This document shows positions 9,951 to 42,400 of a DNA stretch of 64,000 nucleotides, in pieces. The stretch comes from Acidobacteriota bacterium. GTDB lineage: Bacteria; Acidobacteriota; Blastocatellia; Pyrinomonadales; Pyrinomonadaceae. The first letter of the stretch is position 1. Every line of letters starts with the position of its first letter. A model generated the notes under the pieces. The model was not told the origin of the DNA and made no database searches. It saw nothing but the letters and a program-made list of their open reading frames with translations. The DNA lies in contig QHXI01000052.1 in the NCBI GenBank assembly GCA_003222895.1, forward strand, positions 118,109-182,108, read 5' to 3'. The position numbers were made by a program, and so were the translations under genes.

Positions 9951-9955
9951 GTACA

Positions 9956-10069: not shown

Positions 10070-10075
10070 GTGAGT

Positions 10076-26278: not shown

Positions 26279-26307
26279 TTGACCACCCAGACGCGCGTCG
26301 CTATACT
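26279..26307 (+). promoter_or_regulatory. Candidate promoter TTGACC-17 nt-TATACT of the TonB-dependent receptor gene
   Basis: -35 at 26279-26284, exactly 17 nt of spacer, and -10 at 26302-26307. The first ATG (26315) is only 7 nt past the -10. Confidence 0.45.
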
Positions 26308-26310
26308 TCC

Positions 26311-26340
26311 GATTATGAAAATGATTGTCAGAATCATATC
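26311..26340. promoter_or_regulatory. Fur-box-like hexamer array
   Basis: gattatgaaaatgattgtc matches the 19-mer Fur consensus GATAATGATAATCATTATC at 15 of 19 positions. It continues as cagaat catatc. It overlaps the promoter and start of a siderophore-type receptor gene. Confidence 0.5.
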
Positions 26341-28687
26341 ACCGGAGATCGGGCAGGACTTGCGCCTTTTCCTGCAATTTATGGCATTCGTGGCTGTCCT
26401 GGCTGCCTTTGCAGTAACCGGTCAGGCGCAGTCGAGCCAAGGTCCGCTCCGCCGCGGAACTGTTCTCGATCCAAACCGTGCGGCCATAGTCGGCGCTCGC
26501 ATTACGGCTAACGGCAAGACAAGCGCTTCGGCGGTGACCGATGGCAAAGGCGAATTCTCTATCGCCCTGCCGTTCGGTGAATACGTCATGAAGATCGAGG
26601 CTGACGGCTTCGCTTCGGTGACACGTTCGATCGCAATCGGCTCGAACGATGCTGAACCGGTTGAGATTGTCCTGACGCCGGCGTCAGCAACGGCGACGGT
26701 TACGATCATGGGAACCGACGCGTTCGGTTATCGAATCGATGCGATGAGCAGCGCGACGCGAACCCTCACCAACCTTCGCGACGTGCCGCAGTCGATCGCA
26801 GTCGTTAGCAAACAGCAGATCGCCGACCAGTCCATGAAGAGTATTGCCGACGTGGTGAACTATGTTCCCGGCATTACTTCACACCAGGGAGAAAACAATC
26901 GGGACCAACTCGTGATTCGCGGCGTAAGCAGCAGCGCGGATTTCTTTCTTAACGGTATGCGCGACGACGTTCAGTATTATCGAGATCTCTACAATCTCGA
27001 ACGCGTCGAAATCCTGAAAGGACCGAATGCGATGATCTTTGGGCGCGGTGGAGGCGGCGGCGTTGTCAATCGCGTGACCAAGGAAGCGGGGTTTTCAAAG
27101 GTGCGCGAACTTACCTTCGATGGTGGTTCATTTCACACGAAGCGCGTCGCCGGCGACTTCAATCAGCAGCTTAGTCAAAGACTCGCGCTTCGCGTCAATG
27201 GGACGTACGAAAATTCAGGCAGCTTTCGCCGTTTCGTAAATCTCGAACGCTACGGACTCAATCCCACGTTGAGTTTTACGCCGAACGCTGAAACGCGACT
27301 TACAATCGGTTACGAACATTTCCACGACGCGCGTGTCGCCGATCGAGGTCTCCCTTCGTTTCAAGGCAGACCTGCCGACGTGCCAATCGAAACCTTCTTC
27401 GGAAATCCTGGCGACAGTCACGTTCGCGCGCGCGTCGATCGGCTGGCGGGAACATTTCAACGTCAGATCGGGCGTCTGATGATTACGAACCGGACGATGT
27501 TCGGTGCTTACGAACGCAGTTATCAAAACTATGTGCCCGGCGCTGTCAATGCTGCCAAAACGCTGGTGACGCTCACCGCTTACAATAACGCGACGCAGCG
27601 GCGCAATGTCTTCAATCAGACGGATTTCAACTATTCAGTCTCAACTGGGAAGATTAAGCACACGTTGTTATTCGGAAGTGAACTTGGCCGGCAAGCAACG
27701 GACAATTTTCGCAACACGGGCTTTTTCAACAACGTCAGCACGTCGATCCAAATCCCTTTCAGCGATCCGGTGATCTCCACGCCGGTGACGTTTCGTCAGA
27801 ACGCGACCGATGCCAACAATCACGTCACGGCGAACGTTGCCGCCGCACTAGTCCAGGACCAGATCGAACTGTCACGTCGCGTGCAGGTCCTCGCAGGTTT
27901 ACGCTTCGATTATTTCGATCTGCAATTTCACAACAACCGCACTGGTGAAAACCTGCGCCGGATTGATCGATTGATTTCGCCTCGCACGGGAATTGTAGTG
28001 AAGCCGTTCATGCCTCTGTCGGTATACGCGAGCTATGGCGTGTCTTACTTGCCCAGTTCAGGAGATCAATTCTCTTCGCTGACCACGATCACACAACAAG
28101 TTAAGCCTGAGCAATTCACCAACTATGAAATTGGGGCGAAGTGGGATGCGCGCCGCAACCTGACGTTCACGGTGGCGGCGTATCGGCAGGATCGCACGAA
28201 CACCCGCGCGACTGATCCAAACGAGCCGACGCGCATTCTGCAAACGGGCAGTCAACGCACGAATGGCTTTGAAGCTGAAGTGAACGGCAACATCACGCGC
28301 TTGTGGATGATCGCCGGCGGCTATGCGCATCAGGATGCGTTTATCTCGAGCACGACTGCGGCCGCTCGCGCCGGCGCGCGAGTTGCGCTGGTGCCGCACG
28401 ATACTTTTTCGATCTGGAACAAATATCAGATCGTCAACAAACTTTCGTTGGGCGTTGGAGTCATTCATCGCTCAGACATGTTCGCAGCGATCGATGACAC
28501 GGTCACCTTGCCTGGCTACACAAGAATCGACGCGGCGGTTTATGTTCCGTTTAGTGAGAAGTGGAAACTGCAAGCGAACATCGAGAATCTCTTGAACAGG
28601 AAGTACTTCTTGAACGCCGATGGCAACAATAATATCTCTCCGGGTTCCCGGCGCGCGGTGCAAGTTAGTTTGATTACGAGGTTCTGA
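26315..28687 (+). CDS. TonB-dependent siderophore-type receptor with an N-terminal CarboxypepD_reg domain
   Basis: Signal peptide, then CarboxypepD_reg (GTVLDPNRAAIVGARITANG...GEYVMKIEADGF). Plug motifs DVPQSIAVVSKQQIADQ and ERVEILKGPNAMIFGRGGGGGVVN. Barrel ends SLITRF. Start uncertain (26315, 26321, or the later Met of MAFVAVLAAF). Confidence 0.85.
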   Translation: MKMIVRIISPEIGQDLRLFLQFMAFVAVLAAFAVTGQAQSSQGPLRRGTVLDPNRAAIVGARITANGKTSASAVTDGKGEFSIALPFGEYVMKIEADGFASVTRSIAIGSNDAEPVEIVLTPASATATVTIMGTDAFGYRIDAMSSATRTLTNLRDVPQSIAVVSKQQIADQSMKSIADVVNYVPGITSHQGENNRDQLVIRGVSSSADFFLNGMRDDVQYYRDLYNLERVEILKGPNAMIFGRGGGGGVVNRVTKEAGFSKVRELTFDGGSFHTKRVAGDFNQQLSQRLALRVNGTYENSGSFRRFVNLERYGLNPTLSFTPNAETRLTIGYEHFHDARVADRGLPSFQGRPADVPIETFFGNPGDSHVRARVDRLAGTFQRQIGRLMITNRTMFGAYERSYQNYVPGAVNAAKTLVTLTAYNNATQRRNVFNQTDFNYSVSTGKIKHTLLFGSELGRQATDNFRNTGFFNNVSTSIQIPFSDPVISTPVTFRQNATDANNHVTANVAAALVQDQIELSRRVQVLAGLRFDYFDLQFHNNRTGENLRRIDRLISPRTGIVVKPFMPLSVYASYGVSYLPSSGDQFSSLTTITQQVKPEQFTNYEIGAKWDARRNLTFTVAAYRQDRTNTRATDPNEPTRILQTGSQRTNGFEAEVNGNITRLWMIAGGYAHQDAFISSTTAAARAGARVALVPHDTFSIWNKYQIVNKLSLGVGVIHRSDMFAAIDDTVTLPGYTRIDAAVYVPFSEKWKLQANIENLLNRKYFLNADGNNNISPGSRRAVQVSLITRF

Positions 28688-28723: not shown

Positions 28724-30268
28724 TCAGACTTCTTCAGGAGGCAAGTTGCTATTTGCCGGGCCGTTTATCACCGTACCTACGGCATCGTAGCGCGAGCCGT
28801 GACAAGGACAGTCCCAGGTTTTCTCAGCCGCGTTCCACGTAACAATGCAACCGAGGTGCACGCACACCGCTGACATGCTGTGAACGACTCCGTCTTTGTC
28901 GCGATACACGGCGAGCTTGGATAATCCCTTTCGCAGAACAGCGCCGTCCTCTTTCGCAATCTGGGAGACTGCGTCAACTTCACCGGGCGTCAACACGTCG
29001 GTGTATTGCGCGGCCACATTTGCGTTCTCTTCGATAAAGTCTTTGGCGGCTACCAGCGTTTTCCGCGCTGGATCATAGAGATCCCTCCAGGGATTAGTTC
29101 GGTCCATGATGAGATCGGTAAGCAGTATTCCGGCAATTGTTCCGTGCGTCATGCCCATTCCCGAATCACCGGTCGCGATGAAAATATTGTCATGGTCAAG
29201 AGGATTGCGGCCGATGAAGGCGAGAGAATCTACGGGCTCCATCACCTGACCCGACCATCGGAATTCGATCTCTTCAACCATCGGAAAACGATTGCCCGTC
29301 CATTGTTCCAGCTTGCCCCAGCGTTGCGCCCCGTCGTGTTGCTGTCCAGTCTTGTGATCTTCGCCACCCACGATCAGAACATCGTGATCGTCCGCGCGCT
29401 CGATCCGGATGTAGTGATAAGGCTCCGAAAGATTGGCGGGCGCGTCCCAGAGCAATATTGTCGGAACCGAGTCCTTCGGAACGCGCGCTCCGATCACATA
29501 TGTAGTGTAAGGCGCTTGCTTAGTATGAATCGCCACCCGATCGTTTACGGGCGAATTCGTCGCGACGACGATGGTGTCCGCGGTGATCGTGTAGCCGCTA
29601 GTGGTAATTACAAGAGCATCCGAACCACCTTGGATTTTGTCAGCGTGCGTGCTGGTAAAGATCTGACCGCCATCGCGTCCGATGGCTCGCGCCAAGCCGG
29701 TTAGATATTTCAGCGGATGAAACTGGGCCTGTTGCGGAAAGTGCAAACATGGGCCGGTATCGAAGCTCTCCAAAGGCGCTCGATCCAGGCGTCGAACCTC
29801 AGTCAAGCCGGCACGGTGCGCGGCCGGCATTTCGTCTTCCAGCACTTGCAAGGTTCCATTCGCAGCAAGAAATAAGTAACCGTCAACTCGCTCGAAGTCG
29901 CAATCGATTTTCTCTTCCCGCACAATCGCTTCAACCCGGTCAATCGCAGCGGTGTGACTTTCGCCTGCCAGCCGCGATCCTTCTTCACCGAACAAGCGCT
30001 CAAGTTCATAAAATCGATCGTCGAGCGCGTTCGTTAGATGCGCCGTAGTGCGCGCCGTCATGCCGCCGCCGATTGGCCCATCGTCGAGCACAATTACTGA
30101 CTTGCCTTCGCGCGCCAGCAGGTAAGCCGTTGTCAATCCGGCGATGCCCGCGCCAATAACGCAGACGTGCGCGCTTGTATCCTTGCTTAGAGATTTCTCT
30201 GCTGGCGTGTCCGCCGTTGCCATCCAAACCGACGTGGTTGTTCCTGAAGTTGGTCGCATGCTCTTCAA
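28724..30268 (-). CDS. FAD-dependent oxidoreductase fused to a C-terminal Rieske [2Fe-2S] domain
   Basis: N-terminal VCVIGAGIAGLTTAYLLAREGKSVIVLD. C-terminal Rieske motifs CVHLGC...CPCHGS. Confidence 0.8.
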   Translation of the reverse strand: MKSMRPTSGTTTSVWMATADTPAEKSLSKDTSAHVCVIGAGIAGLTTAYLLAREGKSVIVLDDGPIGGGMTARTTAHLTNALDDRFYELERLFGEEGSRLAGESHTAAIDRVEAIVREEKIDCDFERVDGYLFLAANGTLQVLEDEMPAAHRAGLTEVRRLDRAPLESFDTGPCLHFPQQAQFHPLKYLTGLARAIGRDGGQIFTSTHADKIQGGSDALVITTSGYTITADTIVVATNSPVNDRVAIHTKQAPYTTYVIGARVPKDSVPTILLWDAPANLSEPYHYIRIERADDHDVLIVGGEDHKTGQQHDGAQRWGKLEQWTGNRFPMVEEIEFRWSGQVMEPVDSLAFIGRNPLDHDNIFIATGDSGMGMTHGTIAGILLTDLIMDRTNPWRDLYDPARKTLVAAKDFIEENANVAAQYTDVLTPGEVDAVSQIAKEDGAVLRKGLSKLAVYRDKDGVVHSMSAVCVHLGCIVTWNAAEKTWDCPCHGSRYDAVGTVINGPANSNLPPEEV

Positions 30269-30527
30269 CTAAGCGAGTGACATGCCAACCAAGCGCTGGT
30301 CTTTTCGCAGGTTTCGCACTCGTTCGCGCTCGCCGAAATTCTGACACTGTCTGAAATTGCAACAAGGTTCCGACCGCAGGAAGAACTCGATACAGCGTCA
30401 AGTTGAAATAAACAGGCCCGATGATCATCTGCACTTCGCCGACAAGGTGAGGCTCGAATTCGAAAATCGTGGGACTGGCCTTAAGGTTGATACTTCGTAA
30501 CCCTTACGCGCTGCGATAGAATCAGCG

Positions 30528-31829
30528 TTGTCTATGGATCAGTTAACCAGCCAGCAAGAGAAACTACTTTCCGATCTTCAATCCGACGCATTCAACTACT
30601 TCATTCACGAAGTGAATTCAGAGAATGGGCTGGTTGTCGATTGCACCAAAGAAGGATGGCCTTCAAGCATCGCGGCGATTGGCATGGCACTATCGGCTTA
30701 TCCCGTCGGAATCGAACGTAACCTAATCTCGCGTGATGAAGCAATAGATCGAACCTTGCGGAAGCTGCGCTTTTTCGCTGGCAGCGAGCAGAGCACCAGC
30801 GCAGACGCGACTGGCTACAAAGGCTTCTATTACCATTTCCTCGACATGCAAACCGGCCGGCGCGCGTGGCATTGCGAGCTATCGACCATGGATTCGACTT
30901 TTCTGTTTGCGGGAATGCTGGTCGCCGCGACTTATTTCGATCGCGAGACCGCACTTGAGAATGAGATTCGCCGGTTGGCGGACGAACTTTATTGCCGCGC
31001 TGATTGGCAATGGGCAACGGCTGGCGGCAGTACCCTGGCTCACGGTTGGCGACCTGAGAGTGGCTTCTTAAAGGATCGATGGGACGGTTACGACGAAGGC
31101 GTGTTGGCTGACGTGCTTGCTCTTGCTTCGCCGACTTTTCCACTGCCGCCGGAGAGTTATGACGCCGACGTGGCGGCCTATGTGTGGAAGAAAGTTTACG
31201 ATTACGAATATCTCTTTGCGGGCCCCTTATTCGTTCATCAGTTTTCGCATCTCTGGATCGATTTTCGGGGCATCCAGGATCAGTTCATGCGCGATCACAG
31301 TTCAGACTATTTCGAAAACAGCCGCCGGGCCACTTACGCCCAGCGAGAGTATGCGAAGCGAAATCCGAACGGCTTCAAAGGTTACAGCGACGTGTGCTGG
31401 GGTTTGACCGCGTGCGAAGGTCCCGGACCGAAGGAACTAACGATCGGTGGAGTCGAGCGCAGTTTCTTTGATTATGTTGCGCGCGGAGTGCCCGATGGGC
31501 CGGACGATGGCACACTGGCGCCGTGGGCTGTCGTGGCGTCACTGCCGTTCGCTCCAGAGATCGTTTTGCCGACGCTGGAACACTTCAACCAGATCGAAAT
31601 CGGCGTCGAACATCCGTACGGGCTCGAAGCGACGTTTAATCCGACGTTTCCCGACGAAAAATGTCGCGAGTGCGGATGGGTTTCGCCCTGGCATTTTGGC
31701 ATCAACCAGGGGCCAATCGTGCTCATGATCGAAAATCATCGCAGCGATTTTCTTTGGCGCCTGATGCGCTCTTGCCCATACATCATCAATGGGCTGCGCC
31801 GCGCCGGCTTCAAGGGCGGATGGCTATGA
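30528..31829 (+). CDS. Glucoamylase-like / six-hairpin glycosidase family protein (possibly beta-1,2-glucanase-like)
   Basis: Cytoplasmic 433-aa protein. Motifs recalled from the putative glucoamylase family: GFYYHFLDMQTGRR, STMDSTFLFAGML, WGLTACEGPG, INQGPIVLMIEN. Confidence 0.5.
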   Translation: MSMDQLTSQQEKLLSDLQSDAFNYFIHEVNSENGLVVDCTKEGWPSSIAAIGMALSAYPVGIERNLISRDEAIDRTLRKLRFFAGSEQSTSADATGYKGFYYHFLDMQTGRRAWHCELSTMDSTFLFAGMLVAATYFDRETALENEIRRLADELYCRADWQWATAGGSTLAHGWRPESGFLKDRWDGYDEGVLADVLALASPTFPLPPESYDADVAAYVWKKVYDYEYLFAGPLFVHQFSHLWIDFRGIQDQFMRDHSSDYFENSRRATYAQREYAKRNPNGFKGYSDVCWGLTACEGPGPKELTIGGVERSFFDYVARGVPDGPDDGTLAPWAVVASLPFAPEIVLPTLEHFNQIEIGVEHPYGLEATFNPTFPDEKCRECGWVSPWHFGINQGPIVLMIENHRSDFLWRLMRSCPYIINGLRRAGFKGGWL

Positions 31830-32022
31830 CCAGACCGGTCTCAAAGAAATCAATTTGTGACGCTGGCAGGCGCGCCCTGAGGGCTCCCACGGTTTCAGGT
31901 TGTGAATAGATCGGGCGGACGGGTGCAAGGAGAGTCGAAAAGGCAAATGGTCAGTCCAGGTTTTCTGAAAACAGAGAGATAAACTGCGAGATTGCACCTC
32001 TCGTTTTTCTCGCGTGCTGTTG

Positions 32023-32045
32023 TGCTATACTCCCGCGCGCCTCGC
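32023..32045 (+). promoter_or_regulatory. Extended -10 promoter-like motif TGCTATACTCCCGCGCGCCTCGC upstream of the SLATT gene
   Basis: TGnTATACT lies 85 nt upstream of ATG 32116. 19 of 23 positions are identical to the motif at 32984-33006. Confidence 0.4.
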
Positions 32046-32115
32046 AGTACCTAAGCAACTTTCCGCACTTATTTCATCAGGCCGGCGAGCCTGGACACTC
32101 ATTGAGAGGTACGAC

Positions 32116-32577
32116 ATGGCAGAGCCTGACGTCACGTTGGATCGCTTGGAAGATCAGATCGACTGGTACGATCGAAAAAGCAAATACAACCAGCAGATGT
32201 TCAAGCTGATGAAGACTGCAACGATCGTTATCTCGGTGTCGATACCTTTGTTTGCCGCGTTTGCGGCTTACAGATCCATCGAGGGCAAAATGGTGGCGCT
32301 GATTACCGGCTCGGTCGGTGCAACCATCGCCTTGCTCGAGGCGTTCCAGCAACTCAATCAGTATCAGCAACAATGGATTACATACCGGTCCACTGCGGAA
32401 GGTTTGAAGCACGAGAAATTCTTGTTCCTGGCATCGGCTGGGCCATACGCCGCCGCGGAATATCCCAAGAAGCTGCTGGCTGAACGAGTCGAATCGCTGG
32501 TTTCACAGGAACATGCAAAGTGGGCTTCGACGCAGGAGCAAACAGGCAAGAGTCCCACTAAGCCAGAGCAAAAATAG
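32116..32577 (+). CDS. DUF4231 / SLATT-domain two-TM protein (153 aa)
   Basis: LEDQIDWYDRKSKYNQQMFKL, then two hydrophobic helices (TATIVISVSIPLFAAFAAY; VALITGSVGATIALLEAF). Then WITYRSTAEGLKHEKFLFLASAGPY and ERVESLVSQEHAKW, the recalled DUF4231 signature. RBS GAGAGG lies 6 nt before ATG 32116, and the ORF-track start 32014 lies upstream of the promoter motif. Confidence 0.8.
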   Translation: MAEPDVTLDRLEDQIDWYDRKSKYNQQMFKLMKTATIVISVSIPLFAAFAAYRSIEGKMVALITGSVGATIALLEAFQQLNQYQQQWITYRSTAEGLKHEKFLFLASAGPYAAAEYPKKLLAERVESLVSQEHAKWASTQEQTGKSPTKPEQK

Positions 32578-32693
32578 AGTTCGTAAGCGATTAAGGCGAT
32601 CGCAGATTATTTAGGCAAGGCAAACAAATAGTTTGCGTTGCTTCCTCAACCCGCATTTCAAGAATGGTGCGACTCTTTCCGGGAGCAAGACGC

Positions 32694-32933
32694 ATGACCT
32701 CCACCGCGAATTTCTAGAATCAACTCTTCATTAGTTATGCGCACATCGACCATCGCTACTTCACCGGCGGCGGGTAGCGTTTCGACGAACACCGGCGGGT
32801 TTGCCGGATTTGCTTGCTTATGAATTTTACGAACGGAACGAAGCTCTGGCGGAACCTGTCAAATTCGTATCTTATCGACGGCCGTGATTTTCTGGAAAGA
32901 GTGAAAAGCATCTACGCAATTTATGTGGGCTAA
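32694..32933 (+). pseudogene. Decayed, truncated TIR-domain ORF (80 codons, two in-frame TAG stops)
   Basis: A single frame reads MTSTANF*NQLFISYAHIDHRYFTGGG*RFDEHRRVCRICLLMNFTNGTKLWRNLSNSYLIDGRDFLERVKSIYAIYVG*. FISYAHID plus (G)W..F....L and LWRx...L.G.DF resemble the N-terminal half of bacterial TIR_2-type domains. The second TAG sits where Trp (TGG) is expected. Confidence 0.45.
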
Positions 32934-32983
32934 CGAATCTAAAACGCAAACCTACTAATAATCTAGTCAGCAAGAATTCTTAC

Positions 32984-33006
32984 TGCTATACTCCCGCCGC
33001 GCTCGC
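32984..33006 (+). promoter_or_regulatory. Extended -10 promoter-like motif TGCTATACTCCCGCCGCGCTCGC upstream of the TM-TIR gene
   Basis: TGnTATACT lies 60 nt upstream of ATG 33052. It is a near-copy of the motif at 32023-32045. Confidence 0.4.
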
Positions 33007-33051
33007 GCTTAGATCTCCGCTACCTGAACCAGCACAGGGGTCGAAGTCGCC

Positions 33052-36024
33052 ATGTCAACGGTTACCTCCAACCAAATCCGCAAGTCGGCGCGTACTCCAT
33101 CACGGCCCGGCGAAAAGGATTCTAGAAAACCGCTTCTCATAGGCGTATGTCTCCTTGGTTTGTCGGTGACGCTCCTGGTTTACGCAATCACCTATCGACC
33201 GAAAGCAAAACAATTCATCTTTGCAGGGCGAATTGAGCGGATTCCTCCGACCGGCGTGGTCGAAATCAAACAATCCCCTCAAACACCAACGAAAGACACC
33301 TCTCCATCGGTCCGGGCACCCAACCGAACTCAATACCGGCATCATGCAATAAAGAGCCGATCGGCCAATCCTGAAGCAATTGAACCGCGAACGCTGAATC
33401 GAGCCGAACCATGTCTTGCCATACGCGAACTGGCGAAGAGTGTTGACACTCGTGACATGCGTCCAGTCGGCGATCCGTCACCGCTGCGCAGCGCCGCGCC
33501 CCAAACCTCGCCCACTGCGCAGAAGAAGAACGTGATTCGCAGGTTCTTTGCCTGGCTGGCCGGACTCTTTTCCCGGAAAAAGTTGGGCGAAAACGATCCA
33601 CCAAATCATCAGCCGCCTAAGATTTCGCTCGGTCTGTCACGCAGACAAATTTTCGCGCGGGAGCAGTGCCCCGACAAGATGCAACCCGATCCGTCTTGTG
33701 TGGCGGAAACGCGATTGGAAGTCTTTGCACGGGCAACCGATTCGGATGGTGAGTTATCGATAAAACCAGCCGCTCAAATCGGAAAGATCATAACGCTGAG
33801 TAAGGAACATTTTACCTGGGATCTAACCGGTGTTGCTCCGGGAGTTTATTCATTTACCGTCACTGCGTCTGATGGCAAGTCTGAGCTGGCGACAAAGTCT
33901 GTGAGAGTGACGGTGTCAGCTTGCGAATGCATTGCGGCGCCTCAGCCCACACCTCAGCCGACGCCTGCCGCGATTTGCCCCGAAATCAGTTTATCTGGAC
34001 CGGACACCGTAAAGCCCGGCGAAAGCTTTGCAGTTTCAGCCGCTGTCATGCGTGGGTCGTCAGAGACTCGCCATACGTACGACTGGATAGTCTCCGAAGG
34101 CGAAATTGTGTCCGGGCAAGGGACGTCCAGGGTTGTCATTAGAACACCTCCGCGCGCGACGACTGTTAGAGTGAGGGTCACATTACGTGAACAGCCGGCT
34201 TGTCCTGCTGACGCATTTTGGAGGATTGGGGCTACCGCGGGTCCAACGACTTCAGTTTCGGGAACTATCCAGGACGCTGCTGGTGCTGTGATTTCTGGCG
34301 CTACCATCATTCTGACGAGTGCTGAGGGCCGGTCTTACCGAACCGTCAGCGGAGCCAATGGTGATTATGAGATTTCAGGATTGTCTCCGGGCCGTTATGA
34401 CGTGCGGATTGAGGTCGCGAATTTTAAGACGCAGACTACGACCATAGAAGCGCGCATGATCCAGCAGTCGCCTTTCAACTTTGCTCTTGAAATCGGTGGC
34501 ATCGGTGAGCCGGTGACGATAACAGCGGAATCCTCTCCTTCTCCTTCTCCTACACCTTCGGCCACCGCTTCGCCTACTCCACTGAAGATCCTGAAGGAAC
34601 AGGATCAAATCAAGGTCGATTATCCCGAACGATTCCTCCAAAAGTCGGAAGGCGAGATCACATTCGAGATGGAACGAGTTCTCAGGGAGGTGATCGCTTC
34701 AGAAACTAACATTAACGGCAAAGTCGAAATCGTGGACAAACCTCGGCCGATACCTGGCGCGACCCCAGACACAACTCTCAATGTCGCGTTCGGCGAGCAA
34801 TACGAGGCTTACGCGAACGTGACACTAATTCCAAACGGGCTAACCGTGGTGTCGACGCCCGCGAGCGTAGAACATTCGCTGAAAGAGAAACTGGTTAGGT
34901 GGGCTTGGCGCTTGAGACCAACTGACGCTAGCGCGACCGAAGCGTCATTCAAATTCCAGTTGGACATCGTTTGGAAGGCCAAGGTTGTCGGATCGCTGCC
35001 GGATGTCGTTCGCCGCGACGTGTGGCCCAATCAACCGATAATCGTGCCGATCGGGCCGCCGCCCTCAGTCAAAGTCGCAACCTATAGCTCGCCGGTGCTG
35101 GCCGCTGGTGGCTTGCTCACGCTTGGGTTCGGCGCCAGACGTCGCCGACGCCTCGTCCAAGGTGCCGCGGAAGATGCGCCAGCCGAAATCGAGGAGGAGA
35201 GCGTAACTGCAAGCGTGTTTGCCCCGAGCCAGGTCGCAACTGGTAATAGCTTTCTCGTGCAGGTTTTTGCTCACCTGGGGGAACAGGCAGAATCGCTTGA
35301 GAGGCTGGCGCGGGAAGCTGACGATGATGCGCGCAGACGAGCAAGTGCAGAACTACAAAGGCCCGTCAAACGCGGAGTTGTTCTGACTTTCAACTTAACG
35401 ATGAAGGGACTGGACATTGATGAGCCGTCGCAATCGTGCACCTGGCGCGGCGCGCCGGCGATCGTTCAATTCGGAGTCACCGTGCCCCCTGACTTCACCG
35501 CACAAGATCTCTTGGGATTGGTAACTGTCTGTGAGGAAACGGTGCCGATTGGGCATCTGCGATTCAAACTCAAAATTGTCGATGGCGCTGCAACTACCGC
35601 GAACACTCCACAATACATTGGCACTGCCAGGCGATATAGTCAGGCTTTCATATCATACGCCTCACAAGATCGCGCAGAAGTGCTAAAGCGAGTCCAGATG
35701 TTGAACTCTTTGAAGTTGAAGTTCTTTCAGGATTTGTTGACGCTCGAGCCGGGTGACGAGTGGGAAAAGTTGATTTACCAATACCTTGATGCAAGCGATG
35801 TAGTTTTTTTGTTTTGGTCAAAGGCAGCCAGTGAGTCTTCGTGGGTGCGAAAAGAGATTCAATACGCCATGCAGCGAAAACATAACCTGGAAGAAGAGGC
35901 ACCCGAAATTGTGCCCGTGATTATCGAGGGACCACCGCCGGCGCCAGCCCCTGCGGAACTCGCGTTTCTTCATTTCAACGATCGGTTTATGTACTTCATC
36001 AGCGCCACCGATGCCGGTGACTAA
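33052..36024 (+). CDS. Membrane-spanning receptor-like protein with a C-terminal TIR domain (990 aa)
   Basis: TM1 at aa 27-47 and a low-complexity stalk. Two Ig-like modules at about aa 215-385 (TWDLTGVAPGVYSFTVTASDG; YDWIVSEGEIVSGQGTSRVVI). CarboxypepD_reg at aa 401-466 (VSGTIQDAAGAVISGATIILTSAEGRSYRTVSGANGDYEISGLSPGRYDV). P/S linker and an unknown domain at aa 511-670. TM2 at aa 676-696, followed by RRRRR. Beta-rich domain at aa 716-845. TIR at aa 863-965 (QAFISYASQD...DVVFLFWS...SSWVRKEIQYA). Confidence 0.8.
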   Translation: MSTVTSNQIRKSARTPSRPGEKDSRKPLLIGVCLLGLSVTLLVYAITYRPKAKQFIFAGRIERIPPTGVVEIKQSPQTPTKDTSPSVRAPNRTQYRHHAIKSRSANPEAIEPRTLNRAEPCLAIRELAKSVDTRDMRPVGDPSPLRSAAPQTSPTAQKKNVIRRFFAWLAGLFSRKKLGENDPPNHQPPKISLGLSRRQIFAREQCPDKMQPDPSCVAETRLEVFARATDSDGELSIKPAAQIGKIITLSKEHFTWDLTGVAPGVYSFTVTASDGKSELATKSVRVTVSACECIAAPQPTPQPTPAAICPEISLSGPDTVKPGESFAVSAAVMRGSSETRHTYDWIVSEGEIVSGQGTSRVVIRTPPRATTVRVRVTLREQPACPADAFWRIGATAGPTTSVSGTIQDAAGAVISGATIILTSAEGRSYRTVSGANGDYEISGLSPGRYDVRIEVANFKTQTTTIEARMIQQSPFNFALEIGGIGEPVTITAESSPSPSPTPSATASPTPLKILKEQDQIKVDYPERFLQKSEGEITFEMERVLREVIASETNINGKVEIVDKPRPIPGATPDTTLNVAFGEQYEAYANVTLIPNGLTVVSTPASVEHSLKEKLVRWAWRLRPTDASATEASFKFQLDIVWKAKVVGSLPDVVRRDVWPNQPIIVPIGPPPSVKVATYSSPVLAAGGLLTLGFGARRRRRLVQGAAEDAPAEIEEESVTASVFAPSQVATGNSFLVQVFAHLGEQAESLERLAREADDDARRRASAELQRPVKRGVVLTFNLTMKGLDIDEPSQSCTWRGAPAIVQFGVTVPPDFTAQDLLGLVTVCEETVPIGHLRFKLKIVDGAATTANTPQYIGTARRYSQAFISYASQDRAEVLKRVQMLNSLKLKFFQDLLTLEPGDEWEKLIYQYLDASDVVFLFWSKAASESSWVRKEIQYAMQRKHNLEEEAPEIVPVIIEGPPPAPAPAELAFLHFNDRFMYFISATDAGD

Positions 36025-36068
36025 GTTACTTATGAGCATTCCCTGAAGGTTCTTTCCGTCGTTGCGGT

Positions 36069-36995
36069 TCAGTTGTCCCGATTGACAACGAATTCGACCA
36101 TGGCGGCCAGCAGTTCCGTTGAGCGGTTGATCTTTTTCAGCGCCTCACAAGAATATCGATAGGCGGATTTGATTCGCTCGTTCGTGCTCGCGATTCCAAA
36201 GAGTGCTGGAAAAGTGGCCTTGCTTGCCCGCGCATCTTTGCCCGGGGTCTTTCCTAGATCTTCCGCAGTCGCCGTGACATCCAAAAGATCGTCCGTGATT
36301 TGAAACAACAAACCGAGGTTGGTGGCGTATTCCGTGATCGCCGCGAGTTCATCTTCGTTTGCGCCGGCGAACAGCGCGCCGCAACGGGCAGCGGCGCGAA
36401 TCAAAGCGCCGGTCTTCAGGCGATGAATGCGCTCGAGCTCGTCGCCGTTCACTTCGCGTGATTCAGCATTGAGATCAAGCTCTTGGCCCGCCACCATTCC
36501 TTCCGGCGTTCCCGACGCGCGCGAAACTTCGGAAATCAATTGAACGCGCAAGGCAGCATCCAGCTTTTCATCTTCCGCAATCGTCTGAAACGCGAGAGCT
36601 TGCAACGCATCCCCGGCGAGGATCGCCGTTGCTTCGTCAAACTTCACATGGCAAGTCGCTCGGCCGCGTCGCAGATCGTCATCATCCATCGACGGCAGAT
36701 CGTCGTGAATCAGCGAATAGGTGTGAATCATTTCCAGCGCGCAGGCCGTGCGCAATAGATCATCTGCGCGCGCGTCGAACGTCTCGCCCACGGCCAGCAG
36801 CAACGCGGGGCGAAATCGTTTTCCGCCCGCGAAGACACTCCAGCGAATCGCTTCATGCACGCGTTGCGGTTGTTCGGATGCTTGCGGGATCAGGCGATCG
36901 AGTTCCGAATCAATCAGAGTGCGGCAGGATGCGAGAAATTCCCGCGCGTAATTTGCGTCGGAATTTATTACCACAGAGGACACAGAGGAAATCAA
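36069..36995 (-). CDS. ispA: Polyprenyl (farnesyl/geranylgeranyl) diphosphate synthase
   Basis: GGKRFRPALL, first Asp-rich motif LIHDDLPSMDDDDLRRG, second FQITDDLLD. It lies downstream of xseB as in the classical xseB-ispA arrangement. Start uncertain (TTG 36995, or GTG 36983 or 36974). Confidence 0.85.
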   Translation of the reverse strand: MISSVSSVVINSDANYAREFLASCRTLIDSELDRLIPQASEQPQRVHEAIRWSVFAGGKRFRPALLLAVGETFDARADDLLRTACALEMIHTYSLIHDDLPSMDDDDLRRGRATCHVKFDEATAILAGDALQALAFQTIAEDEKLDAALRVQLISEVSRASGTPEGMVAGQELDLNAESREVNGDELERIHRLKTGALIRAAARCGALFAGANEDELAAITEYATNLGLLFQITDDLLDVTATAEDLGKTPGKDARASKATFPALFGIASTNERIKSAYRYSCEALKKINRSTELLAAMVEFVVNRDN

Positions 36996-36997
36996 AC

Positions 36998-37270
36998 CTA
37001 GGAAAAATCTTCCTCAGCACTAGCAGCGTTCAGATCGGTTTCAGCTTCAAAAGGTTTCACAGTTGGCCGGCCTTGATTATCGCGCATCAGAACTTCAATC
37101 CGGCGTTCGGCTTGATTCAGACGCTCCTGGCATTCGCGCGAAAGCTTCACACCCTGCTCAAACAACTCGAGACTTTTTTCGAGAGGCAGCTCGCCCTGCT
37201 CGAGTTCGCGTACGATGCGCTCAAGCTCTTCCAATGACGACTCAAAAGTTTTTGGTTTGGGGGTGCTCAT
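36998..37270 (-). CDS. xseB: Exodeoxyribonuclease VII small subunit
   Basis: [43 protein letters not shown] is the XseB signature. Confidence 0.85.
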
Positions 37271-37282
37271 TTATTAGCAACG

Positions 37283-37984
37283 CTACCACTTCAATCCTTC
37301 GATTTGCTTGCGAATAGAATCCTGAACCTGCGAGCCATTCGACGGCATGCTCCGAACGACCGCGTCTGCAACCATCTTTGCCAGCTTCTCGTCCTGCACG
37401 GCAGTGATGCGCCAGCGCTCTGATTCGGCCTGCATTGTAAGCTTAATCTGCTCGTCTTTCACATGCACCGTGACCTGCGCGGTATTGTTTTCCTGTTTGA
37501 TATCGGCGAAATACGGAATGCCGAGCGCGACGACGATGAAGGGCTTTCCCTGCGCGATGCTGCTCAAATCCTGCAACTCTTTTATTAGCTGTTCGTGCAC
37601 GGTGTCTTTTAACTTTGCCGAGAGCGAATCCCTTACAGGATCAACTTGGGACGGCAAGAGCGACGCCGCGGACGAAGAGGCTGGAAGTCTGTGACGGATC
37701 TGCGACACAAAATCGGCAGTGATCTTGTCAGTGTCGAGAATCCCATCAACTGTCGCGCTGTCGTTTCGCTGCGCAGCGTCGGCAAGCAGAGCGATCGAGT
37801 ATGCCGGTCCGCTTCGATAATGCCGCCACCAAAAATACCCACCCGCAGCAACTCCGCCAACCACAACTAGCAAGATTATCGCGACGAACAAGAGCACGCG
37901 ACCGAAGCCGCCACGCGATCGACTTCCACGCGCGGCAGCCGGTTGGTTCTTATCGAGGTTGATGACGATGCGATTGCGTTTCAT
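37283..37984 (-). CDS. Membrane-anchored hypothetical protein (DUF2939-like?)
   Basis: Basic N-terminus and one TM (VLLFVAIILLVVVGGVAAGGYFWW). Start set to ATG 37984, 1 nt after the xseA stop. Confidence 0.5.
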   Translation of the reverse strand: MKRNRIVINLDKNQPAAARGSRSRGGFGRVLLFVAIILLVVVGGVAAGGYFWWRHYRSGPAYSIALLADAAQRNDSATVDGILDTDKITADFVSQIRHRLPASSSAASLLPSQVDPVRDSLSAKLKDTVHEQLIKELQDLSSIAQGKPFIVVALGIPYFADIKQENNTAQVTVHVKDEQIKLTMQAESERWRITAVQDEKLAKMVADAVVRSMPSNGSQVQDSIRKQIEGLKW

Positions 37985-37985
37985 T

Positions 37986-39389
37986 CTATTCAGTTTCAGT
38001 TTGTTCCACGCGACAATCGAGTGTTCCTTTCCAAAGCCGAAGTCGCAGCTCATCGCCAACGCTCATCGTACTGGCTTCACGAATGATTTGTCCTTGAGCA
38101 TCCTGGGCGATTGCATATCCGCGCTCTAAGACTTTCAAGGGAGACATCGCATCCAGCGCCGCCGCGGCCTTCGCAAAATCCTGTTTCGCCGCTTCGACGC
38201 GCGTGGCGATCGCATTGTCGCGTAGACGTTTCAATGAATCGAACCGGGCCCGTCCGGCCGCAACCACGGATCGGAGTTGCACCGGCGAGAGACTGTGAGC
38301 TGCGGCATTCACGCGGCGGTGAATATCCTGCAAGGATGTTTTGATTGCCGACCGAAGACGATAATCAGCGGCGTCAACGCTCGCAACCGCATCGTGCAAT
38401 CGTGCAGCTACTGCATCGAATGCCGTCGATTGGGCAAGCTCATGAACCTGGTTGCGCGCGTCGGCTATGCGGTACTGAATCGATCGCGCGAGCGTTGCCG
38501 ACAACCCCGCCAGTCGCGAACATAATTCGGATTCATGCGTCGCGACAATCTCAGCCGCGGCGGAAGGCGTGGCCGCGCGTAGATCCGCAACGAAATCAGC
38601 AATCGTGAAATCTGTTTCGTGACCAACTGCTGAGATTACCGGAATCGTCGAGCTGCGAATCGCTCGCGCGACTGCTTCTTCGTTGAAGGCCCAGAGATCT
38701 TCGATCGATCCGCCGCCGCGTCCGACAATCATCACATCAACAGTCGCGTCCAAATCTCCATCGCGTAAGGCGCGTTGATGATGATCGTTGAGAAACCGAA
38801 TCGCTCGAACGATTTCATGCGACGCGCTTTCGCCCTGAACCCGAGCCGCCGCCAACAAAATGTGCACCGTGCGCGTGCGCCGTGCGATCACGTTCAGAAT
38901 GTCGCGGATCGCGGCGCCGCTGGCTGAGGTGACGACGCCCACGCGTCGTGGAAAGATCGGGATTGCGCGCTTCAGCTCCGGCGCAAACAATCCTTCCGCT
39001 TGCAGACGTCTTTTGGTTTGTTCGAATGCCAGTTGCAACGCGCCCGCGCCGACCGGCTCGAGCGATTCGACGACGAGCTGATACTCGCCTTTCTGCTCGT
39101 ACACGTTCAGACGCCCGCGCGCGCGAACTTGCATTCCATCTTCCAGACGAAAACGAATTCGCTGATTGTTGCTGCGATAACACGCGGCGCGCAGTTGCGC
39201 GAACTCATCCTTCAGAATGAAGTACCAGTGGCCGGAACCATGCGCGCGATAGTTGGAAATCTCGCCCTCGACCCAAATGGTAAAGAAACGCTTTTCGAGC
39301 TCACCGCGAATTTGTGCCGTCAGTTCAGACACGCTCAGCGGCTGACGTTCAGTTTGATCGAAGAGTGATGCGAGTAATGGTTGGGACAC
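37986..39389 (-). CDS. xseA: Exodeoxyribonuclease VII large subunit
   Basis: N-terminal OB fold (LSVSELTAQIRGELEKRF..VWVEGEISNYR...SGHWYFILKD). Catalytic region VGVVTSASGAAIRDI and GRGGGSIEDLWAFN. Confidence 0.9.
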   Translation of the reverse strand: MSQPLLASLFDQTERQPLSVSELTAQIRGELEKRFFTIWVEGEISNYRAHGSGHWYFILKDEFAQLRAACYRSNNQRIRFRLEDGMQVRARGRLNVYEQKGEYQLVVESLEPVGAGALQLAFEQTKRRLQAEGLFAPELKRAIPIFPRRVGVVTSASGAAIRDILNVIARRTRTVHILLAAARVQGESASHEIVRAIRFLNDHHQRALRDGDLDATVDVMIVGRGGGSIEDLWAFNEEAVARAIRSSTIPVISAVGHETDFTIADFVADLRAATPSAAAEIVATHESELCSRLAGLSATLARSIQYRIADARNQVHELAQSTAFDAVAARLHDAVASVDAADYRLRSAIKTSLQDIHRRVNAAAHSLSPVQLRSVVAAGRARFDSLKRLRDNAIATRVEAAKQDFAKAAAALDAMSPLKVLERGYAIAQDAQGQIIREASTMSVGDELRLRLWKGTLDCRVEQTETE

Positions 39390-39421: not shown

Positions 39422-42400
39422 TCACTGAAATCCCGGCGCCAGCAGATTCGTCATCTTCGCGGGATTCTTGATCATTTGTTTTGTCATCCACATGTCGGTC
39501 TTAGCCAGCAATTCACGTCCGCGATCGCCGCCAACCAACTCGCCCAAACGCCGGCGCGCAACGGTCGCGTACAGCTGCATGTGGGAGGTTTCAAAATCCT
39601 TCACGGCCTTTTCCAAAAGGTTTATTGCGCTCGCCTCGTCACCGCGTCTATGAGCGACTGCAGCGCGAACAAGCGTGGCCATTGGATTCGCATAGGCCGT
39701 GTTCTCACGCTCGATCTTACCAGCTAGTTTTTCCGCGAGTCGCAGCCGCGGTTGAGTTATTTTTCCGGTCGCCGTAGCGAGAGCTAACCGCGCGCGCAGT
39801 TGCGTCGCGTCGATGCGCAGTCCCTGAATGCGGCGCAAGAGAGACTTCTCGAGCGGCCTGAGTTGAGTTTCGACGTGTCGCCAGGCGACTTCGTAATCAC
39901 CCGTATAAAGCTCGATCTGGGCCAACGCCACCAGCGACGTGTAGTGCTGCAAATGAAATCCGCGCCGCGGCCAGGTGGTCATCGCGGCAATCACTTCATC
40001 GCGCGCGCGATTTGGATCATCCGCGGCGAGCCAAATCGTATTCAAGCGCGTGCGCAAATCCGTTGCGGCAAACAGATTTCCCTGGTCCAGCGCGGCAGAA
40101 AGAAGTTGCGGTACGCGTCGCGATACTTCAACCATGTCGCCGAGGTAAAGCAGCGATGTCAGCATAAAACGATTTGCGATCGTCAACTCCCAGGTGACGC
40201 CCGTACATTCATCGCGCAGAATTTCCGCGGCCCGTTCACAGAGCTCGGCGGCCTGCTTCCAATTTCCAAGCAGATACGCACTCAGTCCGCGCGCCCAAAT
40301 CGCTAGACCAAGTGCGTGCGGATTGCCCGCCCGGCGGGCCAGCGCATCGGTCTTCTCCATGAGCCGGGCAACGTGTTCTTGTTCGGCGCCGCCCCGCGCG
40401 GCGGCCTGACTTGCTTCGAACGCCATCGCGCGCGCGACGCGCGAAATTTCTCCGGCGCGCAACGCCAACAGTAAATGCAAACTCTGAAAGTCAGCGCCGC
40501 GAATAAGATCGACAACGCCCAAACCTGCGGCGACGGCCCAGCACGTATCGATACGCAGCAGCTCGGCTTCAGGAATTGATGCCGCGTCACGTTCGGTAAA
40601 ACTCAGGCCGCGCACGCGAATCCAAAGTCGCCGCAGAATCAACGATAAAAGCGCCCGCTTCGGACCTCGAGCCAACTTCAATCCCACGCTTTCCAAAACG
40701 ACGCGAAAGACTTCTAGTCCTTCATCGATGTGGCCGCCCATCAGCAATTGGGCGCCGGCGCGCTGTCGCAATTCCAAGGCCCGACGCGAGGAAGTCGTTT
40801 TCGCGGCGTCGAGAAATTCGTGCGCAGCTTGAGCGGGGCGGCCCGCGTTCGCCAACGCATCGCCCAATCCAATCTTCAACTCAACCAGGTTGGGCGCATC
40901 GGGTTTCAATTCGATGGCGCGACGAAAGTAAAGCGCGGCCCGATCGAATGCCAGCGCGGTCGCAGCTTTCTTCGCTGCTGCTTCGGCATGCAAAACCGCG
41001 CGCTCATTCTCGCCCGCGCCGAGATAGTCCTGATACAAGCTTTCCGGATCGTCGAGGCCGCGGGCTTCAATCGCTTGCGCCAACCGCCGATGAATCTGTT
41101 TTCGTTCGCTTTCGTCCAGCAGCGCCGCCAAAGTTTCGCCGATGCGATCGTGGTACATCTCAACGCCATATTCGGCGCCGCTGCTACGCACAAACTGCGC
41201 CACGCGCAGGGTTGTCAACAATGAAAGCGAATCGCCGGAAACGCCGGCTGCCCCAAACGCAACCGCTTCGTTAACCGGACGTCGCGCGACTGCGAGTACG
41301 TTCAGGAATTGTCGGGCGCCGGCCGATAACTGTGTGATTCGTTCCTCGAGCATGGTTGCCAACGAGATCCCCGCCGTCGCAGCGCCCTCGTTCATCATTC
41401 CATAGTGCGTCAGCTGCTCGATCAGGAAAGGACTGCCACCGGCTTCGTTGACGATCGATTCGATGAATAGTTCGCCGGATAATTTCGCCGCCGCGAACAG
41501 CGATCGCGTCAGCTCGCGCGCTTCACCGCCCGGCAATGGACCAATGAAGATCTCACGACACGTATCAGTTCCGGCCTGCACCAGCAGTTGTTTCAGGAAG
41601 GGCTTTTCTTCGATATCTTCGCTGCGAAAACTGGCAATCAGTAAAAGCGGCGGCGCGTCAGGCGGCCGCAGCAAATCTTCGAGCAGAAAGATGCTGTCCG
41701 CATCGGCCCATTGCAGATCGTCGATATAGATTACCAGCGGCTGTCGCTTCGCAATGCGCGTCAACAATTCACGCAACGCGCCGAATGCTTTGCGTCGCAG
41801 CGTAAATAAATCGATCGACTCCGGATGACGAGCGCGCGCTTCAAAGATCGCGTCGACCTGGAGCATCACCGGAAACACCCGCGATAGAGCAGCTCGATTG
41901 CGCGGCATGAAAGCTTCAGCCTTCGCGCGACGCAAAGTTGCGAGATGCTTGCTCAGGCTATCGACGACTCCATCCAGAGCCTTGTACAGAACCGATTCGC
42001 GTTCGTAGCAACGGCCTTGTAACACCACCGCGTTGCGCGTCTTCTCTTTCAGTCCATCCAGAAACGTTCGCGCCAAAGTCGTCTTGCCCATACCCGAAAC
42101 GCCATGCAGCAAAACGGTCACGCACTGGCCTTCGCGCGTCGCGCGAAACGCGTCGTGTAATTCAGCCAGTTGCCGCTCACGCCCAATGAACGAAACTTCC
42201 GACGCGAATTGCAGTGCCGATGCAGCTGATCGATGGGCACCAAGTGCGCGCAGCACTTCGCGTCCGGTGGGTCGAACTTCCGGATCGCGACGCAGTAGCC
42301 GGATGCAAAGATCATTCAGATCGCGTGGCACTTGCGGATTGATTTCCCGCGGCTGGATCGGATCGCGCGTTTGTTTGCGCAACATCACTTCGAAGAATCT

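Follow-up and report, generated by a model that had tools for sequence, protein, structure and literature searches.

A SLATT gene and a receptor-like TIR gene in an acidobacterial islet: recent neighbours, probably not an evolved two-gene system

A 64,000-nucleotide (nt) stretch of contig QHXI01000052.1, from a metagenome-assembled genome of a soil acidobacterium with Pyrinomonadaceae/Blastocatellia as its nearest relatives, is referred to here as the window and carries a gene for a small SLATT-type membrane protein followed by a gene for a 990-amino-acid (aa) receptor-like membrane protein that ends in a TIR domain. This arrangement raises the question of whether the two genes work as one system. 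A first-pass annotation had described five elements at this place, namely the SLATT reading frame, a spacer with a broken TIR-like reading frame, the giant TIR gene, a promoter motif shared by both genes, and unrelated flanking genes, and had joined them into one signalling module. We found all five at the coordinates it had given, and the observation is therefore confirmed. As for the function, we favour, at a probability of roughly 0.5, a different reading, in which the locus is a small, recombination-scrambled islet of conflict (defence-type) genes in a Pyrinomonadaceae-like acidobacterium and holds two independent modules without joint evolution, one an orphaned effector, SLATT, and the other a self-contained TIR NADase that senses the envelope. 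The two genes, their parts, and the scars and promoter-like sites described below are all on the plus strand.

The first gene (32116-32577) encodes a 153-aa protein which, judged by profile searches, is a clear SLATT_1/DUF4231 member. The family had been called from its motifs, and the protein scored above the curated cut-offs of all three models, Pfam DUF4231 (5e-25, 88.3 bits, cut-off 24.7), Pfam SLATT_1 (1.5e-15, 57.7 bits, cut-off 26.3) and NCBIfam SLATT_1 (1.8e-35, 121.8 bits, cut-off 41). Two stretches of high hydropathy, residues ~31-55 and 59-78, confirm the two transmembrane (TM) helices, and a conserved helical region of the cytoplasmic side comes after them. The listed open reading frame (ORF) opens at GTG 32014, and the start taken here, ATG 32116, agrees with the N-termini of 20 aligned homologues. 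The motifs W..YR.T.E.LKHEK and LAE..ES.VSQE..KW are invariant in the alignment. We found more than 3,300 homologues, many of them standalone proteins of ~150 aa with 60-90% identity. A profile of the family had no match in the PDB. The ratio of nonsynonymous to synonymous substitution rates (dN/dS), measured against the related locus L004, is 0.095, indicative of strong purifying selection. A passage of PMC7159879 that cites Burroughs 2015 gives SLATT as a predicted nucleotide-responsive pore-former, and the window protein is likewise predicted to be a nucleotide-gated, membrane-disrupting effector.

We surveyed one genome per species, which gave 472 relatives of the SLATT gene, and analysed the best 80 loci. 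These come from Acidobacteriota, Actinomycetota, Nitrospirota, Armatimonadota, Planctomycetia and Alphaproteobacteria. TIR_2 was the commonest family among the immediate downstream neighbours of SLATT (17/77; the next commonest family occurred 3 times). The 80 loci were then scanned with a TIR hidden Markov model built from the SLATT-partner TIRs. A TIR ORF was present within 6 kb on either side of SLATT at 58/80 loci and within 1.5 kb at 51/80, and TIR ORFs were 14.5 times as dense inside the 1.5-kb limit as at 1.5-6 kb (80 loci; binomial p=7e-22). Similarly, a TIR ORF of ~140 aa lies directly beside a SLATT_1 relative on 23 of 24 viral contigs (IMG/VR, prophage-like; L178-L201). At L016, L034, L051, L061 and L063, where SLATT is at least 50% identical to that of the window, a small TIR gene lies 5-24 bp from it; the one at L016, the only one of the five checked, is ThsB_TIR by Pfam. 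These gene neighbourhoods support a functional tie between this SLATT family and TIR genes.

The partners come in several architectures, small TIR, TIR-TM-TonB_C, TIR-TM-FGE-sulfatase, TIR-TM-PD40 or TIR-TM-WD40, TIR-ankyrin, and TIR_2-DUF4062 with nSTAND1, and their TIR domains fall into at least five sequence clusters. Many Acidobacteriota SLATT_1 genes adjoin proteins with an N-terminal TIR, one TM helix and a C-terminal domain of extracytoplasmic type. TIR-TM-FGE-sulfatase stands beside SLATT_1 at L020, L021, L026 and L056, TIR-TM-TonB_C at L030, L037, L071, L079 and L082 (L082 via homology only), and TIR-TM-PD40 at L032; TIR-ankyrin occurs at L040. The pairs with an extracytoplasmic domain are candidates for a variant of the TIR+SLATT systems that is linked to the envelope. 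At 12 loci (L030, L036, L038, L041, L062, L068, L069, L071 and others) a Tll0287-like protein of ~290 aa with a HAMP domain is encoded no more than two genes from a SLATT/TIR-TonB_C pair, usually on the opposite strand. The viral SLATT and TIR genes range from overlapping to ~300 bp apart and often sit near a contig end, resembling prophage-borne defence cargo.

TIR+SLATT operons have been validated as type VII Thoeris in a December 2025 preprint, in which infection causes the TIR protein to make canonical cyclic ADP-ribose (cADPR), with ThsH, a SLATT protein, acting as effector (bioRxiv 10.64898/2025.12.03.692087). The effector of DRT10 is a SLATT protein too. The label "uncharacterised" given to the window's genes is thus outdated for TIR+SLATT in general. 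One could read the locus as the first-pass annotation did: the ectodomain of the 990-aa protein would sense an envelope cue, its TIR would make a nucleotide, and the SLATT pore would open. The history of the locus would then be a swap of one TIR partner for another. In favour of such coupling are the linkage of SLATT_1 to TIR genes just described, the validated operons, and the origin of the partner TIRs from several clades, the TIR often being coupled through a TM helix to a domain of extracytoplasmic type (TonB_C, FGE-sulfatase, PD40). Both window genes are also intact, on the same strand and behind similar promoters, and the 990-aa protein is the sole TIR across the 64-kb window.

Against the coupled model stands the family to which the giant TIR protein belongs. 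The gene (33052-36024) encodes a protein identical to NCBI DMF72_06025 and is intact in L093, a locus from the window's own population. The C-terminal 311 residues match 313 proteins at 46-69% identity over ~270-311 aa, most of them 450-550 aa long. We found that the constant part is a domain of ~130 aa, here called X, followed by a C-terminal TIR_2 domain, while the N-terminus varies and may hold REC+HTH, FHA, cNMP-binding, zinc ribbons, a second TIR, CHAT, bPH_2, kinase, TPR or CarboxypepD_reg. In a phmmer search with X alone, 905 representatives of 50%-identity clusters were retrieved at E<=1e-10, and among the matches listed X mostly ends ~130-150 aa before the C-terminus. This X-TIR cassette family is large and unnamed, and is new here. 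Only two other full-length homologues of the 990-aa protein were retrieved from 5.8 billion proteins, P0002 (79% identity) and P0003 (41%), and neither locus has a SLATT neighbour.

The context of the family was sampled at 80 metagenomic loci (652 kb), of which 79 are independent once L093 is set aside. None of the 79 has a SLATT neighbour; only L093 has one. Whether homologues of the 990-aa protein co-occur with SLATT genes had been posed as a check, and no such co-occurrence was seen at the independent loci or in any close full-length relative. Among 130 genes flanking X-TIR no family occurs more than 6 times. The TIR domains of the family also cluster apart from every SLATT-linked TIR, the best normalised score being 0.18. 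By sequence and gene context, the X-TIR family is autonomous and distinct from the SLATT-linked TIR families. A phage origin of the X-TIR gene was rejected; just 1 viral contig carries X-TIR. L003 has a "split" version, in which a 574-aa protein of ectodomain type (8001-9725; PKD, CarboxypepD_reg; 29% identical to the window protein) lies immediately upstream of a 394-aa TIR_2 protein (9776-10960) whose TIR is C-terminal.

How, then, did the two genes come to lie side by side? L004, an ENA contig of 524 kb, has flanks 84% identical in nt sequence to window 22313-28656 and 36193-38958. Between them the order is CreD (minus strand), SLATT (90% aa identity), TIR_2-DUF4062 (506 aa), nSTAND1-AAA_16-GH25 (966 aa) and ispA-xseB-..-xseA. 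The trio SLATT, TIR_2-DUF4062 and nSTAND1 is present in ~11-13/80 other genomes. The best explanation of these gene orders is an ancestral arrangement of SLATT, TIR_2-DUF4062, nSTAND1 and ispA-xseB-xseA, from which the partner genes were deleted in the window. Other relatives show every stage of independent loss of the TIR cargo: SLATT lies directly against ispA in L173, no TIR is found within 8 kb of SLATT in L009, and in L176 only fragments of a TIR (95 aa) and of a WD40 protein (79 aa) lie between SLATT and ispA. Between SLATT and the TIR-DUF4062 position, a stretch of ~510 nt (L013 6656-7165, L176 6669-7179) is 79% identical between two species; its sole called gene in L176 is a 61-aa ORF, and a small gene or RNA could hide there.

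The 474-bp spacer between the window genes (32578-33051) keeps a record of the deletion in two different broken coding remnants. Scar 1 (32695-32795) is the 5' remnant, ~30 codons with in-frame stops, of a TIR_2-DUF4062 gene. It reads "LFISYAHIDHRY.." and frame 3 of the spacer runs "..TSTANF*NQLFISYAHIDHRYFTGGG*RFDEH..". The string LFISYAHID in it is identical to the N-terminus of the 502-aa TIR_2-DUF4062 protein of L001 (tblastn 61% over 18 aa; blastn 85% over 27 nt). Scar 1 lies 118 bp past the SLATT stop codon, and the intact TIR_2-DUF4062 gene of L004 starts 85 bp past SLATT. Scar 2 (32852-32933) comprises the last ~30 codons of a gene of another family, named here for its 336-aa member, with two 1-nt deletions that break the frame. 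By blastn, window 32852-33060 is 75% identical over 209 nt to L001 2985-3199, which spans the last ~80 nt of the 336-aa gene, the promoter-like region downstream and the start of a 991-aa homologue of the giant TIR protein. The 336-aa protein had no Pfam, NCBIfam or PADLOC match. A broken TIR-like ORF had been described in the spacer. Broken coding sequence is indeed present, but as two scars, and the TIR-looking string "KFVSYRRP" (32860-32887) was rejected as a decayed TIR start, being a frameshifted 336-family tail, "KLHYLVDRR"; the real TIR scar is at 32712-32765, within scar 1.

The origin of scar 2 becomes apparent in L001, L174 and L175. In L174 and L175 the order is Bactofilin, TilS, a 345-aa protein, SLATT, TIR-DUF4062 (498 aa) and nSTAND1-WD40. 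In L001 it is Bactofilin, TilS, the 336-aa protein, TM-TIR (the 991-aa homologue, 79% identical), TIR-DUF4062 (502 aa) and nSTAND1-WD40. The 336- and 345-aa proteins of L001 and L174 are 83% identical and the TIR-DUF4062 proteins 81%. The matching orders mark this position as a single slot that holds either SLATT or the giant TIR gene. Behind the slot gene, in L001 as in L174, the final ~80-160 nt of the 336-family gene recur as a degenerate second copy, so that direct repeats flank the slot gene (L001 2984-3061 with 6303-6380; L174 5654-5781 with 6932-7060), and scar 2 corresponds to this repeat unit. The repeats suggest cassette insertion or exchange at that point. Homology between the window and L001 starts at L001 2985, the start of the repeat unit, and ends 75 nt past the stop codon. 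To our reading of the comparison, the repeat-bounded slot with SLATT/TM-TIR alternation is new here.

SLATT and the giant TIR gene are adjacent only in contigs at least 98% identical to the window (L010, L011, L012 and L093). The scars, the orders in relatives and the homology that begins at a repeat boundary together indicate that the order SLATT, scar, scar, TM-TIR, ispA is secondary. The two genes thus became neighbours recently through reshuffling, and an evolved two-gene system is unlikely.

The control regions were compared as well. A promoter-like extended -10 motif (TGCTATACT) with a GC-rich stretch precedes SLATT at 32023-32036. The exact 14-mer, TGCTATACTCCCGC, has exactly two copies in the 64 kb, at 32023 and 32984, which are 93 and 68 nt before the SLATT and TIR start codons. 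With <=2 mismatches allowed, 0.24 matches would be expected by chance; 2/100 shuffles gave 2 matches. Both copies are conserved in orthologous loci, the SLATT copy in L004-L012, L009 and L173. The second copy belongs to a promoter-like site of the 990-aa gene (32964-32992; TAGTCA, 17 nt, TG-TATACT), the sole sigma-70-type match in 31700-36300, whose sequence recurs unchanged in L001 and L019, just past the stop codon of the 336-family gene. Each TGCTATACT in close relatives lies upstream of a SLATT or TIR gene, and 860 kb of other SLATT loci gave 3 matches. TGCTATAAT also occurs at window 5124-5132, followed by CTCGC, ~90 nt before a DeoC/LacD aldolase gene (5215-6318), so the shape is that of a generic extended -10 promoter. 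The reported sharing of a promoter motif thus holds, with identical copies before both genes, but the motif is not specific to them, and we rejected a TIR/SLATT-specific regulatory motif given the 3 matches in 860 kb and the copy at DeoC (TGCTATAAT..CTCGC). Although the two genes are adjacent on one strand, the spacer holds a terminator-like hairpin along with this second promoter-like site. Rfam gave zero matches at E<=1 in 31700-36300, leaving the spacer and leaders without a recognised structured RNA.

Taken together, one part of the SLATT-TIR module stands: the SLATT family is TIR-linked. The part that pairs it with the 990-aa family does not, since that family is without SLATT at every independent locus and the adjacency is near-clonal and bordered by scars. 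The coupled model is further weakened by the distance of 474 bp, the hairpin and the separate promoters, and by the separate clustering of the X-TIR TIR domains. In addition, type VII effectors answer to one specific cADPR isomer (bioRxiv 10.64898/2025.12.03.692087), so an arbitrary TIR need not fit the SLATT protein. We consider the coupled model unlikely.

The shared slot allows a further view of the locus. SLATT and TM-TIR may be alternative membrane effectors of a STAND-controlled system composed of the 336-aa protein, the slot gene, TIR-DUF4062 and nSTAND1, whose controllers have been lost, leaving functionless relics on the way to pseudogenes. The identical slot in L001 and L174, the loss of TIR-DUF4062 and nSTAND1 from the window and the similar decay of L176 are consistent with this. 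So is the absence of 10 bp (33728-33737) from L010, a sibling 98% identical to the window, which puts its 990-aa gene out of frame. The L010 scaffold has N gaps, so this deletion is tentative and possibly an assembly artefact. Against it, the window and L093 each keep the two reading frames unbroken, and most X-TIR proteins have no STAND neighbours. The 336-aa family is missing from 79/80 SLATT loci, so the four-gene unit is not general. We hold the relic model to be quite unlikely. A second deletion in L010, 6 bp long and in frame (34534-34539), is shared with L093.

We next describe the 990-aa protein itself, whose anatomy bears on a self-contained role. It comprises a short N-terminal segment, a first TM helix, an ectodomain, a second TM helix (TM2), X and TIR. 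The first helix or signal anchor covers residues 28-48 (33133-33195; Kyte-Doolittle peak 2.57). Weak Ig/PKD-type Pfam matches lie at residues 221-376, overlapping a hypervariable distal part of the ectodomain at residues 301-395 (33952-34236). A CarboxypepD_reg (transthyretin-like) domain follows at residues 401-480 (34252-34491; PF13620, 2.3e-19), and an S/P-rich linker connects it to a membrane-proximal domain of ~160 aa at residues 515-672 (34594-35067). The AlphaFold2 model of this last domain is a beta-sandwich with a predicted local distance difference test score (pLDDT) of 85 and a core above 90, and despite this confident model no fold in the PDB matched below E=0.02.

TM2 (residues 675-695, 35074-35136) reads VATYSSPVLAAGGLLTLGFGA and is followed by RRRRR. 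It is moderately hydrophobic, with a mean Kyte-Doolittle value of ~1.3 by hand sum, under the 1.5 threshold of the hydropathy scan, and since the AlphaFold2 confidence is low at TM2 the topology is given as a prediction. Its main support comes from an X-TIR subgroup of ~520-545 aa: these relatives start with a lipoprotein-type signal peptide and share the membrane-proximal domain, a TM2-type hydrophobic segment and the poly-Arg/Lys run with the window protein. The 990-aa protein would thus have its N-terminus inside, the ectodomain outside and its C-terminus inside. The first-pass annotation had proposed a membrane-spanning TIR with an extracytoplasmic module of about 630 aa; a receptor-like topology is supported, with an ectodomain of ~625 aa and a predicted place for TM2. 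We set aside a PEP-CTERM-like sorting signal ("GPPP..hydrophobic..RRRRR") for TM2, as the segment is internal, a conserved cytoplasmic cassette follows and the shorter relatives open with a lipoprotein signal.

In the AlphaFold2 model the X domain (35200-35586), which lies ahead of the TIR fold, is a beta-sandwich into which a single helix is inserted (pLDDT ~96). No Pfam model covers it, residues 706-860 being without a match, and in the PDB it has generic sandwich matches only. The reading frame had been said to end in a TIR, and we confirmed a TIR_2 domain at residues 866-976 (35647-35979; Pfam 6.5e-18). E935 (codon 35854-35856), within "SSWVRKEI", occupies the W-x-x-x-E position of enzymatic TIRs and is invariant in 41/41 and 80/80 aligned relatives. 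By Foldseek, the TIR matches SPARTA TIR-APAZ (8qlp_E; 26% identity, root-mean-square deviation (rmsd) 2.5 A, 111 columns) and AbTir (7uxu_A; 25% identity, rmsd 2.0 A, 96 columns). By sequence, the solved structure that comes closest is 9m0n, the TIR at the N-terminus of a TIR-STAND-like TPR protein of 824 aa, and the top PADLOC match of the whole protein is the TIR-NLR model. All three of these solved TIRs are enzymatic. Sequence and modelled fold thus agree with those of enzymatic TIRs, and NADase activity is predicted.

Selection differs along the protein. Against L001, dN/dS is 0.10-0.14 over residues 515-990 and 0.79 (dN 0.55) in residues 301-395, and aa identity to P0002 is 37-50% in residues 301-395 versus 83-100% in 30-codon windows over 511-960. 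Both genes of the islet are therefore under purifying selection, with dN/dS ~0.1, save for the distal ectodomain. No reverse-transcriptase gene, as would point to a diversity-generating retroelement, was noticed near the locus, no search having been aimed at one.

A role outside defence was also weighed. The 990-aa protein could be a physiological sensor of the envelope or of cell-cell (kin or surface) contact with a TIR output, and SLATT a conserved housekeeping membrane protein that is only sometimes near TIRs. The fusion of X-TIR to classical signalling domains (REC-HTH, FHA, cNMP-binding, kinase) is in keeping with this, and the conservation of SLATT (60-90% identity and its low dN/dS) is unusual for a toxin; SLATT is also syntenic beside ispA in relatives even without a TIR. 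The hypervariability of the distal ectodomain does not fit such a role, nor do the SLATT-TIR pairs at the ends of prophage-like contigs, the variable, scar-rich segments, and neighbours such as STAND NTPases, CHAT and further genes of conflict type. We regard a non-defence role as very unlikely.

With two independent modules, events could be ordered as follows. The SLATT_1 protein would be the kind of effector that, in type VII Thoeris-like systems, opens in response to a nucleotide made by a TIR, its ancestral partners TIR_2-DUF4062 and the nSTAND1 NTPase having been deleted down to the scar of ~30 codons, and it would now be orphaned or served in trans. The 990-aa gene may have come, or been joined by deletion, bringing along the promoter and the final ~80 nt of the 336-aa gene that had preceded it. 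Its product would be a sensor and effector in one, an X-TIR cassette fused to one of several interchangeable N-terminal sensor modules. The fast-evolving distal Ig/PKD-like ectodomain would detect an envelope or surface cue, clustering of the X-TIR cassettes in the cytoplasm would carry the signal across TM2, and the TIRs, once assembled, would cleave NAD+, causing its depletion and/or yielding a cADPR-type product.

Several points weigh against the independence of the two modules. The TIR partners of the SLATT family belong to at least five unrelated clades, and many of them are membrane-anchored; a family so promiscuous could co-opt a new TIR neighbour. The 990-aa protein is the lone TIR within reach of SLATT, SLATT is still intact, and an identical promoter-type motif precedes both genes. 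The shared slot could mean functional equivalence in a four-gene system. Finally, the enzymology, topology and phenotype of both genes are predictions from sequence.

Compared with known systems, the window resembles type VII Thoeris in having a SLATT-domain 2-TM protein beside a TIR gene, a likeness at the level of the SLATT domain. It differs in its TIR protein, which is 990 aa long, is predicted to cross the membrane twice and comes from another TIR family, never SLATT-linked elsewhere; the gene has its own promoter and 474 bp of pseudogene scars before it. The trio SLATT, TIR_2-DUF4062 and nSTAND1 (WD40 or GH25) is of a kind of conflict system catalogued by Aravind and colleagues (PMC7159879, PMC8195603), and we found no experimental characterisation of it in the literature. 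It matches the ancestral content of this locus, as seen in L004 and L174; the window differs in being without TIR-DUF4062 and nSTAND1, the former surviving as scar 1.

Rst_2TM_1TM_TIR, a DefenseFinder/PADLOC system reportedly from the work of Rousset et al. in 2022, is said to combine a small 2-TM protein with a membrane-anchored TIR protein. The likeness is to this general plan only, and the window TIR protein differs in its two hydrophobic segments, its ~625-aa ectodomain and its C-terminal TIR. PADLOC-DB 2.0.0, in which the presence of Rst_2TM_1TM_TIR models was not confirmed, gave no SLATT match at E<=1 and only generic models (TIR-NLR, SAVED_TIR, ThsB) for the TIR protein, so the suggested kinship found no backing there. 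PADLOC and NCBIfam gave no names past generic domains for SLATT, the 336-aa protein, a 193-aa protein or TIR-DUF4062/nSTAND1.

The sensor-fused TIR NADases, SPARTA TIR-APAZ, AbTir and TIR-STAND/TIR-NLR, share the TIR fold and the catalytic-Glu motif with the window protein (best matches 8qlp, 7uxu and 9m0n), and likewise join a variable sensor and a TIR output in one polypeptide. In contrast to these, the window sensor is extracytoplasmic (Ig/PKD, CarboxypepD_reg and a novel beta-sandwich) and is joined via a TM helix and the undescribed X beta-sandwich. Animal Toll-like receptors are alike in topology alone, with ectodomain, TM helix and cytoplasmic TIR. The window protein lacks a leucine-rich-repeat ectodomain, homology is undetectable past the TIR fold, and the bacterial protein retains the enzymatic Glu in its TIR and has an extra N-terminal TM helix. 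Our literature search found nothing relevant on bacterial ectodomain-TM-TIR receptors.

The islet lies between unrelated genes, as had been described. Upstream is a glycoamylase-family gene (30528-31829, plus strand; PF10091, 1.5e-77), which CreD replaces at the matching position in L004, L009 and L173. Window 28724-31829, with a DAO-Rieske oxidoreductase (minus strand) and the glycoamylase (plus strand), is thus variable too, so SLATT lies between two variable segments. Downstream the order is ispA-xseB-(258 aa)-xseA, with ispA (polyprenyl synthetase) at 36069-36995 on the minus strand, xseB at 36998-37270 and xseA at 37986-39389, with 84% nt identity to the L004 genes annotated polyprenyl_synt, Exonuc_VII_S and Exonuc_VII_L. 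Past xseA, 3.4 kb downstream of the islet, a 1257-aa protein of STAND type (39422-43195, minus strand) combines a Ser/Thr kinase, an AAA_16/NACHT-like NTPase and TPR.

The TIR-to-SLATT logic is already known, and since type VII Thoeris precedes it a TIR+SLATT pair is not in itself a new claim. What is new here is an X-TIR family with Toll-like-receptor-type topology and a hypervariable ectodomain. More speculatively, and at odds we would put as long, the 990-aa protein may be an "outside-in" TIR immune receptor, in which the fast-evolving Ig/PKD-like domain would recognise phage adsorption, envelope damage or non-kin contact and the cytoplasmic TIR would kill by NAD+ loss or gate SLATT; on the same long odds, the SLATT_1 pairs with TIR-TM-periplasmic-domain proteins (TonB_C, FGE-sulfatase, PD40) would form an envelope-sensing, Thoeris-like class in Acidobacteriota. 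We know of no characterised TIR defence system for which transmembrane immune sensing has been reported.

The locus documents how such islets evolve, with a repeat-bounded slot that alternates between SLATT and the giant TIR gene and partner genes that decay independently in sister lineages. The frequent SLATT_1 partners TIR-TM-TonB_C, FGE-sulfatase and PD40 point to envelope-linked Thoeris-like variants in soil Acidobacteriota. If the ectodomain does control the TIR, the 990-aa protein would represent transmembrane immune sensing in bacteria.

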